Virus record (IMG/VR): IMGVR_UViG_3300021387_000075
Origin: a virus
Taxonomy: Duplodnaviria > Caudoviricetes
Reading direction: 5' to 3' (one strand)
Length of the DNA stretch: 64,000 bases
Position numbers and translations under genes: made by a program. Numbering within the stretch: position 1 is the first letter of the stretch; the number at the start of each line of letters is the position of its first letter. Below are positions 54,841 through 62,609 of this stretch, in pieces. A model generated the notes under the pieces. It was not told the origin of the DNA. It saw only the letters and a program-made list of their open reading frames with translations, and made no database searches.

Positions 54841-56187
54841 ATGGGCGTACCTAGTATTACTACTGTATCAGACCTATATTCCGAAGGGAAATTGAAATTC
54901 CAGAAGGGTCTGTTTAATATAATAAACTGCGGCGTTCGTACTGGTAAAACATATTGGGCCGCGCATCATTTAGTGGATTACACCAGAGATGGCTTATACA
55001 ATAGAATTTTAATTTTGACAGACACAACCGCGCTGAAAGATTAGATTATTTAGGACTACGAAGAGTGCTGTAATGCAGATATTTTTTGGCGGCCGGGCGC
55101 AACCTGGGGTGAGGCCCCAAACCAAATAGGTATTATGTGCTACCAGAAATTCGTTTATATGCTGCTAGAAGATTCCAGCTTCTTAGACGACTTAGATGTC
55201 ATATGTTGGGACGAATGTGATGCTATATTTAACTTCGCGTCCTCAGCTTTTACGCGCGCCCGCAAGACGGACTTCGCGCGCAAGGATATGTCTAACAGTG
55301 AGGTACTGGCGCACATACAAGCAGCTTCTACCAAGCCAGAGTATATGCCACTGGTCCTGTTAGGACTATGGGAGAAGATTATTCAGCATCAGGACATTTA
55401 CTGTATTGGGCTTTCAGCTACGCCCGAGCGCGCCATTGCTTACTACAATGTGCTTACAGGCGCGAGCTACAAAGGAAAGATTGATGCGGGATACAGGTTT
55501 AAAGATGACATTTATTTCACTAATGTATTGGAGCATATAAAGACATTGGAGCCCGAGCAAGGGCACGGGTACTGGTGTTTCTCTCCATACATAGAACCCA
55601 ACAAGGGCATAGTTGCAGCTGCTGAGCGCCAAGGTTTTAAGGCGATAGAGATTCACTCTCTTAGCAATACAGACAAGCCTATGAATGCCGAGCAGCGGCG
55701 TGTCTATGATAGCATTATCCATACCCATATCATTCCACCGCCTTACGATTTCGTGGTAGTGAATAATGCGTTAAAGACAGGAATTACAATAGAGGATACG
55801 CGCTTCGATCATCTCATTGTTAATTCCTTCCGTCCCGAAGACAAGGAACAAGCAGCTCGTATGACCTTTCCCTATTAGCGGCATCAGCGTGTATGGTTGC
55901 CGCAAATCCCAGAAGAATACAGGGATACGTGGCTTACAGTACAGCAATGTAGGGAGCTTGCGGAGCAGCTTGCTGTGTCCGACCTGGATAGGGCGCATAA
56001 GAATAGCGCGAAAATACTAACGTGGAACAGCTTAAAGGACGTATTGCCGCTGGCGGGCTACACAGTGGAATGCTCGCGCAAACGCCTTAATGGCAAACAG
56101 ATGCAGTGCTATAAAATTAGCGGAGAATGGCACGACATTGATATGGTGGATCAGGAATTTGAGGAGCTTTTAGAAGCACATAAATAA
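54841..56187 (+). CDS. superfamily 2 helicase-like protein (TAG recoded, 448 aa)
   Basis: GVRTGKT Walker A, WDECD Walker B, SAT motif III; three listed ORFs in one frame joined across three TAGs. Confidence 0.85.
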
Positions 56188-56219
56188 AAAGGGCAGCTTA
56201 CGCTGCCCTTTATTTTTTT
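56187..56219. terminator. bidirectional intrinsic terminator
   Basis: AAAAGGGCAGC-TTAC-GCTGCCCTTTT between convergent genes. Confidence 0.75.
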
Positions 56220-56430
56220 AACACTCCACAGTCAAATCATCGTTAATAGTGACGGGGCCACCGAAGACATCTTCCAGGTCAATCAGACGGTACGGCGTGA
56301 TGTCAAAGCATTCGGGCCGCCTCATTCCAGCTCGCGCCAGCGCCGCAGCTTCCCAGCTCGCATACAGCTGACCCTCATATACCAGCTCGCACTCCTCAGA
56401 ATTTACAAAGTCCAGCGCATAATACATCAT
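56218..56430 (-). CDS. hypothetical protein
   Basis: 70 aa with its own promoter at 56466-56494. Confidence 0.65.
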   Translation of the reverse strand: MMYYALDFVNSEECELVYEGQLYASWEAAALARAGMRRPECFDITPYRLIDLEDVFGGPVTINDDLTVEC

Positions 56431-56465: not shown

Positions 56466-56522
56466 ATTATACCCTAAATTTGAGAAAAAGTCAAATATGT
56501 ATACTGTATACAACGGGCCGGC
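56466..56522 (-). promoter_or_regulatory. SigA-type promoter, TACTGTATACA operator-like box and GCCGGC junction
   Basis: TTGACT (56494-56489), 17 nt, TATAAT (56471-56466); box 56502-56512; GCCGGC 56517-56522. Confidence 0.75.
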
Positions 56523-56568: not shown

Positions 56569-57057
56569 TTACGCCTTCGTGTAATAGGTTTTCTTGTCGT
56601 TTTCCTTAACGGAGGGAACTAGCACGCCCTTCTCCACTAGACGCTTCGCGGCGGAACCGACCTGCATTACGAGTACGTTATCAGCAACGGACTTGCCTAG
56701 CGCATTGCGAATGTCGGTAGCGGTGTACTCAGCGAAAGCGGGTAGAGCGGCAATCTTAGCATCTAGCTCATCACGGCGAGCCTGAGCTTCGGGATTGGGG
56801 CCCTTAGGAGCCTTTGGACGAGCAGCGCGCTCGGCAGCTTTCAGAGCAGACTCAGCTTCCCAGGCCTTATACTCAGCGACAGCAGCTTCCATATTGAAAG
56901 CAGCGTGGTTCTTGGTGTCCTTGGCTAGTGCGACCTGCACAGAAACCTTAGCGACACCGTCTTCACAGGGGACGACGATAAAGTTAGTCTTGTTGGCGCG
57001 GGCATTCTGAGCGCCTTCGATACCGGTTAGGATGGTTTTCAGTTCATTAATAGTCAT
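56569..57057 (-). CDS. hypothetical protein with possible C-terminal winged helix
   Basis: 162 aa; AGGAG RBS; terminator at about 56535-56560. Confidence 0.75.
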   Translation of the reverse strand: MTINELKTILTGIEGAQNARANKTNFIVVPCEDGVAKVSVQVALAKDTKNHAAFNMEAAVAEYKAWEAESALKAAERAARPKAPKGPNPEAQARRDELDAKIAALPAFAEYTATDIRNALGKSVADNVLVMQVGSAAKRLVEKGVLVPSVKENDKKTYYTKA

Positions 57058-57165
57058 TTTTTACTCCTTTTTACTCTTGGGTTTAGTTACGGCAGACCCA
57101 CCTGCACAAATTTTTTATTTCGTTCTCTTGGAACACTTATATTATATCAGAAATTTGCGGAAAAG

Positions 57166-57336
57166 TCAAATGTTTGGTTCGAGAAAACTTGGAATCCAGT
57201 AGTAAATTTTTCCAGCATTTGCAGCTTCGAGGTCTAGGCACATTTGTTCAGCTTGCGCCAAACTTAAAGTTACACATTCAATTCCAGTTTCTGGGGAATC
57301 TTCCAGCTCCCAGACGATAACATAACATCGTTCCAT
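57166..57336 (-). CDS. small hypothetical protein (56 aa)
   Basis: AGGAG RBS and a consensus promoter at about 57365-57393. Confidence 0.55.
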   Translation of the reverse strand: MERCYVIVWELEDSPETGIECVTLSLAQAEQMCLDLEAANAGKIYYWIPSFLEPNI

Positions 57337-57552
57337 TTTCCAGCTCCTTTCTCTTTACACTATAATTATACACGAAATTTGCGCGAAAGTCAAATACTTG
57401 ATAAATGTTTTTTGGATACAATCCGCAGCTTTCCAAATTTTGCCTCGAATTTTCACGCCGACGGAAATTCAGCTTGCGGCGGGTCCTTATGTTCCAATAT
57501 GTGGGCCGAATATCGCAGCTCGCCGCAGGCCGAAAATCGGTGGAATCGATTT

Positions 57553-57654
57553 TTCCAGCTTCCAGCTCGTATAGAGTTTCCAGCTTCCAGCTGCTCCGTT
57601 GATTTCTCGGGGCAACTTCCAGCTTCCAGCTTCTTCCAGCTTCCAGCTTGCAGC
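57553..57654 (+). repeat. TTCCAGC heptamer repeat cluster
   Basis: Eight exact copies plus one TTGCAGC in about 100 bp, all on the same strand. Confidence 0.85.
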
Positions 57655-57725
57655 TTATTATACTAGGGGCCCACGTAAGTGGCCTGGCGCCTTATGGGAT
57701 AAGGCTCGGGCGCAGACTCGGTGCC

Positions 57726-57786
57726 GTAACACTTGTGTAACAGGGTCGTAACACTTCTGTAACAATTTCGTAACAAAAATTTAACA
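57726..57786 (+). repeat. six (G/T)TAACA hexamers at exact 11-bp spacing
   Basis: Starts at 57726, 57737, 57748, 57759, 57770 and 57781. Confidence 0.9.
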
Positions 57787-57797
57787 ATTGCGAGGGC

Positions 57798-57826
57798 TTG
57801 ACTTGCGCTCGGCGGTGTGATAGAAT
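57798..57826 (+). promoter_or_regulatory. SigA-type promoter with extended -10, facing into the cassette array
   Basis: TTGACT, 17 nt, TG-N-TAGAAT. Confidence 0.7.
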
Positions 57827-57894
57827 ATAATGGGGGAGAAGAGGGGTTGGACGGGCCGGCTAAAAATTGGCCGGCTAGTCGGGCCGGCCCGAGG

Positions 57895-58086
57895 TTAGCT
57901 TGCGCTAACCTCTTCGATAATAACGTTGGTAAGTTTATATACTTTAGTCATATCAAATTTACATCCGCACTTATCACAAGTACAAGTCCACCACTGTTCG
58001 CCACCGAATTGGTCGAAGCTATCGCCATAGTCATTTACCTCATAGTCTTCACACCCGCATTTTGGGCAAGTTTCACTGTACGCCAT
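57895..58086 (-). CDS. small zinc-ribbon protein
   Basis: CPKCG..CDKCG; GGAGG RBS. Confidence 0.65.
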   Translation of the reverse strand: MAYSETCPKCGCEDYEVNDYGDSFDQFGGEQWWTCTCDKCGCKFDMTKVYKLTNVIIEEVSAS

Positions 58087-58423
58087 TTTCTTTTTCCTCC
58101 TTTTCCTTCGCTCTACGTTCCTTATCCTTCCGTGCCTTTTCGGCACGAGCCTTGGCATCGGCTTCCTTCTTCGCCTGCTTAGCGTTGTACTCGTCAATTT
58201 CCTTCTGCATAAGCTCTTCGGCGGTCATGTCCTCACGCTCTTCGGCAACAATAGCGCCGATACGCACGTAGCGCTGGACGCCATTCAAATCGGTCAGGAG
58301 AACGCCATACTGACGATCATTGACTTTGGTATAAGCGTAGTCAGTCGGATATCCGTGGAAAATATCCGCAAAGACTTTATCACGCAGTTCCTGATTGACA
58401 ACAGTAGTAGAAATCTTAGCCAT
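58073..58423 (-). CDS. hypothetical protein with Lys/Glu-rich C-terminal helix
   Basis: 116 aa; own promoter; architecture similar to 63413-63820. Confidence 0.75.
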   Translation of the reverse strand: MAKISTTVVNQELRDKVFADIFHGYPTDYAYTKVNDRQYGVLLTDLNGVQRYVRIGAIVAEEREDMTAEELMQKEIDEYNAKQAKKEADAKARAEKARKDKERRAKEKEEKENGVQ

Positions 58424-58713: not shown

Positions 58714-58912
58714 AAGTTTCCTTTCTTTCTCTTCATCTTTCATATATATTATAACCTAAAATTTGTTACAAGTCAATAGTTAATTGTGTTACAATTCTGT
58801 TACAAATTCGCGGGCCGGCGGGCGAAAACTTAACACATTTGTAATAATTTTGCTATTGATTCGTAATTGCTTTTCTGCTATAATAAGAGCGTGGAAAGGA
58901 AGGTGCTAAGAG

Positions 58913-59413: not shown

Positions 59414-59592
59414 TGTTAGCTTCGGCTAACATTGGCCGGCGCGCCGTTGGATACTGTATACAATAGAAGCGCAAAGAAAAATCCCCACGATTGCCTGCGT
59501 GGGGTCAGTCTCCATCTCGTTTATTGTTTGCCCAACGAGAAAGGGCATTCTGGAAAGGGGCTTTAAGGTTCAACCCCTTAGAACCTCGGGCA

Positions 59593-61684: not shown

Positions 61685-61820
61685 TGGAGTTACCTTTCTG
61701 GTTTGCGTTGTTTTCCTTCAACTTTCAAGTATGATTATACCACGGAAAATAGAAATGTCAATAGGTATTTTGTTACAAAAGTATTAAATCTGCGGGCCGG
61801 CCGAGTTAGCGAGTGCTAAC

Positions 61821-62514: not shown

Positions 62515-62609
62515 CTCTCATCCCTCCTGACACTATTTATTATACTCAGATTTGAAAAAAAGTCAATAGGTAAAATTGTTAAGTTTTTGTTACGCGCCGG
62601 CCGCCCGCC

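Follow-up and report, generated by a model that had tools for sequence, protein, structure and literature searches.

What a strong promoter does in front of no gene, aimed against the genes that surround it and preceded by a long row of phased boxes, is the question raised by positions 57,655 to 57,894 of a 64,000-nucleotide stretch of phage DNA (IMG/VR record IMGVR_UViG_3300021387_000075; Duplodnaviria, Caudoviricetes), the whole of which we refer to as the window. What is known of stop-codon-recoded phages of the gut and rumen comes almost entirely from metagenomes, their control circuits being obscure. With moderate confidence, we consider the locus to be a standard early promoter unit of such a phage, made up of a junction GCCGGC, phased boxes, and a -35/-10 core, that is turned backward, has no gene, and acts as the regulated boundary promoter of a control island, its boxes serving an activator of the OmpR/PhoB type. 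What has been found is a regulatory module, described in detail, and not a new kind of genetic element. Box, GCCGGC, and promoter are all element types that occur elsewhere in the same DNA; what is special about the locus is their arrangement.

The window is part of a large TAG-recoded rumen or gut phage with Firmicute-like signals. Reading TAG as a sense codon fuses dozens of ORF fragments between 2 and 54 kb into long late or structural genes, with frames of 3120 and 1974 codons as examples, and the window also encodes one tRNA of interest here:

2799-2887: tRNA, anticodon CTA

The sequencing runs that contain the window sequence are labelled gut, sheep gut, and bovine gut metagenomes. The relatives compared below are IMG/VR contigs, some of them 130-190 kb long, three of these being classed with direct terminal repeats; taken as a guide, they indicate the genome size of the window's phage. 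A DNA similarity search of deposited phage records with the window gave no match. A 162-aa protein encoded near the locus was also sought in 185,579 bacterial species genomes, where no relative was found and hence no hint of a host.

Recoding is not needed from 54 to 64 kb. In this part of the window, small genes follow one another on the minus strand, and every one of them has a near-consensus TTGAC(A/T)-17-TATAAT promoter and a trailing GC-rich hairpin; about 20 near-consensus promoters with upstream hairpins are found there. Between 56.5 and 63.4 kb, most early junctions run, in gene sense, from a terminator hairpin through GCCGGC(C/G)CG and operator-like boxes to the -35. GCCGGC is present at nearly every early-gene junction of the window, and the longer GCCGGC(C/G)CG stands between terminator and promoter at about 10 of them. 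The early region is built, in other words, of standard promoter/terminator units with interchangeable operator motifs. The original prediction for this locus had missed that boxes and GCCGGC alike are found at many junctions besides this one.

Amid this run of minus-strand promoters there is a sole strong match on the plus strand, antisense to most cassettes, as had been predicted. It is accompanied by the following elements:

57690..57704, no strand: small palindrome CCTTATGGGATAAGG (CCTTAT-GGG-ATAAGG), at the same place in relatives
57725..57786, plus strand: six (C/T)(G/T)TAACA boxes with an 11-bp period, in the promoter's orientation
57798..57826, plus strand: orphan antisense promoter of sigma-70 type, TTGACT-17-(TGa)TAGAAT, with a GC-rich spacer
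57833..57852, plus strand: predicted start of the orphan transcript, placed from the position of the -10; a G-rich sequence (GGGGAGAAGAGGGG) that lacks a start codon and a conserved ORF

The original prediction of six (G/T)TAACA boxes at an exact 11-bp period, followed by a strong promoter of the form TTGACT-17-TGnTAGAAT, was borne out in every detail. GTAACA starts at 57726, 57737, 57748, 57759, and 57770 and TTAACA at 57781, the row extending over 57726-57786; a four-box pattern gave three overlapping matches at the array and none in 100 dinucleotide-preserving shuffles of the window. The promoter consists of TTGACT at 57798-57803, a 17-nt spacer ending in TGA, and TAGAAT at 57821-57826, with a TG two bases 5' of the -10 (an extended -10), and the proximal box of the array starts 17 nt 5' of the -35. 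Several short hairpins had also been proposed at 57666-57726. This claim fared less well, as the region folds like shuffled sequence (z -1.5 and -0.5), and what stands of it is the palindrome at 57690-57704, which recurs in relatives.

Are the boxes a property of this promoter or of something else that happens to lie beside it? Each of five minus-strand promoters of the window (58776, 60637, 60978, 61761, and 62566) has two (G/T)TAA(C/T)A boxes, 11 bp apart and just 5' of the -35, and the pair at 62566, CGTAACAAAAACTTAACAATT, is nearly equal to the two proximal boxes of the six-box array, CGTAACAAAAATTTAACAATT. Across the window and 16 relative loci, a box pair in the same orientation accompanies 18 of 248 sigma-70-like promoters, which belong to the window phage and four relatives; in all 18, the start of the proximal box lies 14-17 nt 5' of the -35, and 30 of the 35 box pairs in these loci are phased upstream of a promoter. 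Because box pairs elsewhere share the promoter's orientation and a fixed position, the six boxes belong to the plus-strand promoter and are an enlarged form of a normal element. The enlargement is a feature of this promoter in relatives too. Ordinary box-bearing promoters of the window and of loci L003, L004, L012, and L014 have two boxes, and the counterpart arrays at the antisense promoter have six in the window, four in L003, five in L004, four in L012, and five in L014, six being the longest array found in the window and the relatives' loci that were read. When IMG/VR was searched for a pattern of three GTAACA at 11-bp spacing, more than 108 matches came back, nearly all of them unrelated tandem repeats; among these matches, only L064 (the contig of L003) and L107 fit the promoter-box system described here. 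A high-affinity binding platform, which had been offered as a fallback explanation, would fit both the length of the array and its typical upstream activator position.

On the downstream side of the backward promoter, the next features are these:

57853..57861, no strand: standard junction GCCGGC copy (57855), context TTTTTAGCCGGCCCGT
57862..57889, minus strand: predicted intrinsic terminator GGCCGGC-CCGACTA-GCCGGCC followed by AATTTTT, from a terminator scan
57893..57914, no strand: hairpin GAGGTTAGC-N4-GCTAACCTC, right after the stop codon of the 63-aa gene
57895..58086, minus strand: 63-aa early gene for a zinc-ribbon protein (CxxC...CxxC), called from its ORF and RBS

Three GCCGGC sites had been reported here, and three are present, at 57855, 57870, and 57883. 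Their proposed meaning, scars of empty cassette sites, is not supported on a closer reading. The copies at 57870 and 57883 build a GC-rich hairpin, GGCCGGCCCGACTAGCCGGCC on the minus strand, with the T-run AATTTTT directly after it, which is the layout of a Rho-independent terminator, and the region folds at -36.6 kcal/mol (z -4.3 versus shuffled sequence). This predicted terminator would end the minus-strand transcript of the 63-aa zinc-ribbon gene, whose product has weak Zn-ribbon/Lar-like Pfam matches below the cut-off. The third copy, at 57855, stands in the context 'TTTTTA(A)GCCGGCCCGT', as at the ordinary junction at 56517, and the hairpin behind the stop codon is the recurrent junction palindrome GTTAGC-N4-GCTAAC, which is found, for example, at 61796. 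The three-copy layout of the window is seen again in L014 and L163, and two or three copies are at the same position in L004, L157, L003, and L012; since the layout recurs in relatives, the stack is a conserved terminator plus junction motif and not a pile of scars. That the stack forms a minus-strand intrinsic terminator is another point that the original prediction had missed.

The predicted transcript of the backward promoter encodes nothing credible, in agreement with what had been claimed. Only one ORF follows the promoter on the plus strand (57817-58182, 121 aa); its start lies within the promoter itself, it is antisense to the zinc-ribbon gene, and none of the relatives has a counterpart to it. 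The sequence CTGGGGGAG(A/T)AG after the -10 is kept in L014, L012, and L163, with variants in L157, L003, L004, and L016. This conserved G-rich initial transcribed sequence is without a role in the boundary-promoter model. Evidence on RNA came from Logan contigs of four metatranscriptome runs, which are blind to strand, ends, and short RNA; no RNA contig of these four runs lies over 57404-58105, which is a weak hint.

On the upstream side, the box array is followed by a non-coding island and then by the next early promoter and its genes:

57394..57689, minus strand: non-coding island with 12 AGCTG repeats (mostly AAGCTGGAA), all on the minus strand
57365..57393, minus strand: forward early promoter TTGACT-17-TATAAT, which closes the island
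57166..57336, minus strand: 56-aa early gene, variable among relatives
56569..57057, minus strand: 162-aa conserved early protein with a predicted C-terminal winged-helix DNA-binding domain

The island, which is apparently untranscribed, also holds an imperfect long inverted repeat and an A/T-rich tract beside the forward promoter. Folded to a consensus, the islands yield a weak stem of 8 pairs at -4.9 kcal/mol, too little to call an RNA, in which there are some compensatory changes, mostly from one sequence. AGCTGG was also counted genome-wide: outside the module, its numbers are similar on the two strands, and a strand bias such as that of a polar motif of the Chi or KOPS kind was rejected. 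The AGCTGG-rich stretches that the relative G009 has at 112-117 kb look by eye like coding sequence and not like a second module. The forward promoter drives the 56-aa gene and probably the 162-aa gene as well, the latter having its own promoter at 57169 besides. RNA contigs from two studies span 56584-57341 and end 17-32 nt short of the predicted start of the forward promoter, again a weak hint, and in the run from the source sample no part of the stretch reaches a higher word depth than the RNA contig over the 162-aa gene. The predicted fold of the 162-aa protein has a confident C-terminal winged helix, and among known structures it comes closest to DNA-binding domains of PerR, Fur, and PadR-type regulators, which match consistently although with weak E-values.

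The same arrangement is conserved in other phages. With the 162-aa gene as a query, 27 relative loci were retrieved, and the window shares with at least 15 of these 27 a common order upstream of that gene, running from the antisense promoter through operator-like palindromes or boxes, the island, and the A/T-rich tract to the forward early promoter. The islands are 220-530 bp long, non-coding, and carry 8-13 AGCTG repeats each (mostly AAGCTGG) in sense orientation, with 97 repeats forward versus 3 reverse in ten modules. In the eight loci from the first search that have an island upstream of the 162-aa gene, the antisense promoter adjoins the island, and in loci with no island beside the 162-aa gene a strong antisense promoter was not found there. 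Further instances of the module are in L157, L162, L163, and L170, and the island is also present in L158, L161, and L171. L012 has the complete module at a distance of 2 kb, on the downstream side of the 162-aa gene, with its internal order unchanged, and G001 has a reduced module about 10 kb away, likewise with its internal order kept and with a nearly pure A/T tract of about 80 nt downstream of the forward promoter.

The antisense unit comes in two types. Type A, which is ORF-less, is found in the window, L003, L004, L012, L014, L016, L157, and L163 and has TAACA boxes (except in L016), an initial sequence close to CTGGGGGAG, and GCCGGC hairpins. Its GC-rich spacer is seen in the window, L014, L157, and L163, and the antisense promoters of the last three are homologous to that of the window, with a similar spacer. 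Type B, found in L001, L002, L005, L006, and L162 and probably in L161, L170, and others, has palindromic operators, for example TTAGATGT-N3-ACATCTAA and AATGTTCG-N8-CGAACATT, and drives one to four genes. The first type B gene of L001 is a 134-aa ORF (L001:4721-5125) with an N-terminus that is GNAT-like by eye only. The two types are unrelated in sequence, yet they occupy one position. L002 and L003 agree fully (100% identity) over at least 2.6 kb on the downstream side of the forward promoter; identity falls to 81-88% within the island, and beyond it, on the upstream side, the two phages are unrelated. The antisense units have therefore been exchanged as modules with the layout kept. The presence of two unrelated promoter types in one slot argues that an outward promoter is needed rather than a particular product, and the lack of a conserved product in the orphan type, together with the two fillers of the slot, argues that it is outward transcription or site occupancy that matters.

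Which protein might bind the boxes is suggested by their geometry. They are direct hexamer-N5-hexamer repeats, one helical turn apart, at about -50 to -105, and they look like an activator array of the OmpR/PhoB type, resembling that of WalR. OmpR occupies six half-sites (F1-F2-F3) at ompF, and the sites of Bacillus subtilis PhoP are TT(A/T/C)ACA repeats. Arrays of 11-nt direct-repeat units are bound by Streptomyces PhoP, a member of the OmpR/PhoB family (PMC2275107), and the WalR consensus has been quoted as TGTWAH-N5-TGTWAH (bioRxiv 10.1101/2022.04.01.486798). The promoter at 58776 has TGTAAC-AGAAT-TGTAAC, an exact match to that consensus. In the six-box array, TGTAAC alternates with CGTAAC and the last box is TTTAAC, so that every second box, CGTAAC, departs from TGTWAH. 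The likeness to sites of the family thus extends to direct hexamer half-sites one turn apart, in arrays of two to six on one DNA face; the difference is that the sites described here are predicted ones on a phage and lie at many early promoters, one of which is gene-less.

A Trans_reg_C domain was sought in the records of five relatives (four of them fragments) and was not found. The 162-aa winged-helix protein was rejected as a binder of the boxes, since L002, which has no boxes, and L003, which has them, encode the identical protein. L002 and L003 do share the AGCTG island, and the same protein is therefore a reasonable candidate for binding the AGCTG repeats. Close relatives that lack boxes altogether are odd for a conserved host factor unless the hosts differ. 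We regard it as conceivable, yet unlikely, that a subset of early promoters is wired to a host response regulator, for example WalR reporting active cell-wall growth, most strongly at the promoter studied here, and that the module is a host-state switch for early transcription or for replication from the island. If a host response regulator does bind the boxes, the phage would read host physiology through its early promoters.

The boundary-promoter explanation would work as follows. The terminator stack on the outer side of the backward unit would end the transcript of the upstream zinc-ribbon gene. With the backward promoter at one edge of the island and the forward promoter at the other, two outward-firing promoters bracket it. 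The boxes would be half-sites for a winged-helix regulator of the OmpR/PhoB type, similar to WalR. This regulator would probably be one of the host's response regulators, the other candidate being a phage protein that has escaped recognition; it would bind one face of the DNA cooperatively and activate from about -50 to -105. Since it has six boxes against two, and a poorer, GC-rich core, the backward promoter would be the most regulator-dependent of the set and its highest-occupancy site. Outward firing and the terminator stack together would shield the island from upstream early transcription; the backward promoter would also send antisense transcription into the upstream genes, and outward transcription may perhaps hold the island negatively supercoiled. 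The island itself would most likely serve as an array of operators to which a DNA-binding protein of the phage binds, the obvious candidate being the adjacent 162-aa winged-helix protein, which would then control the forward promoter and possibly have a role in replication. Its function could be that of an operator array for the forward promoter, of an origin, or of both. The anatomy, the recurrence of every element, and the conserved arrangement are observed; the binder, the direction of regulation, and the boundary function are inferred, the last of these from the arrangement of the elements.

A layout of this kind has a counterpart in the Bacillus phage phi29, whose divergent early/late control region has promoters A2c/A2b on one side, A3 on the other, and p4 and p6 sites. 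Both are short non-coding regions between opposed promoters, packed with repeated sites, which in phi29 are sites for small phage DNA-binding proteins that set the transcription programme. The two regions have no sequence or protein similarity, and they differ in that the present one has a gene-less promoter and at least four motif classes.

Should the island prove to be an origin or a switch, one would have a handle on how the programme starts in these uncultured phages. An origin is indeed the alternative to the boundary promoter that holds up best, and we consider it a possible but improbable one. The whole module would be a replication origin, with the AGCTG repeats as iterons for a phage initiator, perhaps the 162-aa protein, the A/T tract as the unwinding element, and the outward promoters as a source of negative supercoiling or of a G-rich primer RNA or R-loop. 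Much of the anatomy is compatible with this, namely the 8-13 repeats per island in one orientation, the A/T-rich tract beside the forward promoter and the one downstream of it in G001, the conserved long inverted repeat with some compensatory changes, the winged-helix gene downstream of the island, an ORF-less promoter with a conserved G-run at the transcript start, and, weakly, the absence of RNA contigs over the island. Iteron-type replicons include plasmids with RepA, RepE, or pi and the origins served by lambda O and SPP1 G38P, and the module resembles them in having direct repeats beside an A/T tract and a promoter, upstream of a gene for a winged-helix protein. The repeats here are, however, much shorter and irregular, at 5-9 bp with irregular spacing against the 17-22 bp of classical iterons, and the 162-aa protein has a single winged helix. 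GC skew gives no signal either; in the complete relative G009, its cumulative curve turns at about 72 and 110 kb, with no turn at the module (about 130 kb). In addition, the orphan promoter aims at the GC-rich hairpins, away from the island, and not into the unwinding element.

A small regulatory RNA of about 50-90 nt, made from the orphan promoter and composed of a G-rich 5' end and the GCCGGC hairpins, could act in trans or as an antisense RNA to the 3' end of the upstream early message, and we hold this to be somewhat less probable still. The promoter, the CTGGGGGAG start, and the GCCGGC hairpin are kept together in eight orphan-type modules, the hairpin of L004 is followed by a U-run in the orphan orientation, and the plus-strand RNA from the promoter of the window folds strongly, at -46.7 kcal/mol (z -4.7 versus shuffled sequence). 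However, consensus folding of the orphan transcripts of six phages found the invariant GCCGGC hairpin as the sole shared feature and no covariation, and that hairpin has a use on the opposite strand as well. Conservation does not extend to the 3' ends: the strand of the T-run beside the hairpin differs between phages, and it is the other strand in the window, L014, and L163. The upstream gene that would be the target is different in every relative, and relatives of type B have no such RNA at this position. A search of 57300-58100 against the covariance models of Rfam 15 gave no match at E <= 1. Elsewhere in the window, at 56090-56227, Rfam gave weak sub-threshold matches only.

A somewhat more doubtful idea is that the unit is a relic of evolution: recombination at the palindromic GCCGGC junctions would have flipped a cassette, which then lost its gene and left a promoter that is now useless. 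The corresponding promoter does drive genes in L001, L002, L005, and L006, the orphan unit of L003 has GCCGGC on both flanks, and the G-rich transcript start resembles a leftover ribosome-binding site. Against this, the orphan state persists in at least eight diverged phages, among which the neighbouring protein is only 59-76% identical, and with it persist a near-consensus -35/-10, an extended -10, and four to six boxes. The gene-bearing type is, moreover, non-homologous, with another spacer and other operators, and hence is not simply the ancestral state.

We consider it very unlikely that the module is where the genome physically ends, a pac site, or an injection-stop region, its repeats serving terminase or an end-binding protein as binding sites. 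Dense, oriented short repeats and palindromes within an early region would suit such a site, and the cluster resembles the pac hexamers of P1, the short repeats by the left end of T7, and the injection-stop region of T5. Against this, the contig ends of the relatives do not coincide with the module, which is internal to contigs classed complete by IMG/VR; its position relative to neighbour genes differs in L012 and G001; and early genes of the same orientation flank it on both sides. Nor did anything observed speak for the first-injected end, which the original prediction had named as another possibility.

Scarcely credible, finally, is the proposal with which the original prediction had led, that this is an integron-like entry site for cassettes with the GCCGGC stack as scars of empty sites: GCCGGC does punctuate the cassette junctions, cassette content is highly mosaic, and the breakpoints of the L002/L003 exchange fall at the island borders, but the stack is a working-looking terminator plus an ordinary junction copy that recurs in relatives, the promoter is antisense to the cassettes, every one of which has its own promoter, the genes to a distance of about 6 kb gave no integrase or recombinase family in Pfam and PHROG scans, which left the small ORFans unassigned, and the expected polarity, with the most variable cassettes nearest the site, is absent, the presence and absence of window genes in 16 relatives being mosaic on both sides of the site with no gradient. 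Exchange appears to take place at any junction, as with the PeSL (promoter-early stem-loop) cassettes of T4-type phages (PMC2839356).

The PeSL cassettes (Arbiol et al. 2010, PMC2839356; PMC4122927) are among the known systems closest to the early region as a whole, and in T4-type phages they mediate modular shuffling (PMC2839356). A PeSL is a strong sigma-70-like early promoter plus a stem-loop, intergenic and repeated through the variable region (PMC2839356), and units of promoter and terminator stem-loop are likewise repeated between small variable early genes in the window. Differences in gene content between relatives map to junctions here too, as seen in L002 versus L003 and in the mosaic of gene presence and absence, and the PeSL system also has mini-circles that arise from recombination between junctions. 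The present phage is an unrelated, TAG-recoded one, however, with a fixed GCCGGC palindrome and phased TAACA boxes at its junctions, and the unit examined here differs further from a PeSL in being inverted, ORF-less, and tied to a repeat island.

Between the backward promoter, which has no ORF (57798-57826, plus strand), and the forward early promoter (57365-57393, minus strand) lies a non-coding island that recurs in related loci from IMG/VR contigs (L001 to L006, L012, L014, L016, L157, L158, L161 to L163, L170, and L171).

57394-57689, minus strand: non-coding island of AGCTG repeats, conserved in relatives

Each island carries 8 to 13 AGCTG repeats, mostly as AAGCTGG, in a single orientation (97 forward versus 3 reverse across ten modules), and an A/T tract is a further component. 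The island also contains an imperfect long inverted repeat, the sequence of which varies from phage to phage, as the arms show.

Window: GCGGCG/CGCCGC
L161: CCTATTGCGG/CCGCAATAGG
L170 and L014: GGCTTGCG/CGCAAGCC

In L001, L005, L012, L158, L161, L162, and L018 (genome record G001), the AGCTG arrays are bordered by a 16-bp palindrome, TGTCAAGTA(C/T)TTGACA, in which TTGACA is present in both orientations within the 16 bp; this palindrome is absent from the window. The L018 locus (G001:C1, approximately 42.0 to 42.2 kb) is a reduced module, in which the forward promoter is followed by approximately 80 nucleotides that are almost exclusively A/T and by a terminator hairpin, without a gene.

Boxes upstream of promoters fall into more than one class. 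The TAACA type also occurs in the related contig L107, where approximately 250 bp (positions 170 to 420) preceding a gene-bearing TTGACA-17-TATAAT promoter are occupied by approximately 20 boxes (TAACA/TAATA), oriented both ways and mostly spaced at 11 bp. The second class is a near-palindrome, TTGTATACAGTATAC(A), found in the window at the promoters at 56494, 60233, and 63958 and near 59435, and among relatives in L003, L012, L014, L157, L158, and L161 to L163. It replaces the TAACA boxes at some junctions, the promoter/terminator units between small early genes, and is found within the islands of relatives as well.

Downstream of the forward promoter is the gene for a conserved early protein.

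56569-57057, minus strand: gene for a 162-aa early protein, conserved at 59 to 80% identity in 27 relative loci

Relatives of this protein were found in viruses only, and its C terminus is confidently predicted to form a winged-helix domain resembling the DNA-binding domains of PerR, Fur, and PadR. The highest RNA-contig word depth of the stretch examined was over this gene.

The early region (56 to 64 kb) does not need recoding. In the late and structural genes (2 to 54 kb) TAG is read through, and frames of up to 3,120 codons are open solely with TAG as a sense codon.

2799-2887: tRNA gene with anticodon CTA, one of seven clustered tRNA genes

The recoded helicase-like gene has, at its 3' end, a weak, subthreshold Rfam match to PrrB/RsmZ (56090-56216, plus strand; 27 bits against a cutoff of 44; E value of 0.002), which overlaps a bidirectional terminator hairpin (56188-56211) and is probably due to chance.

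In the related locus L017 (G005:C1, approximately 91.4 kb), a small hydrophobic ORF has AAGCTGGAAGCTGGAAGCTGGAA immediately 5' of its ribosome-binding site, and in the window, the genes at 57336 and 56430 have AGCTGGAA between the ribosome-binding site and the start codon. The motif can therefore belong to mRNA leaders too.
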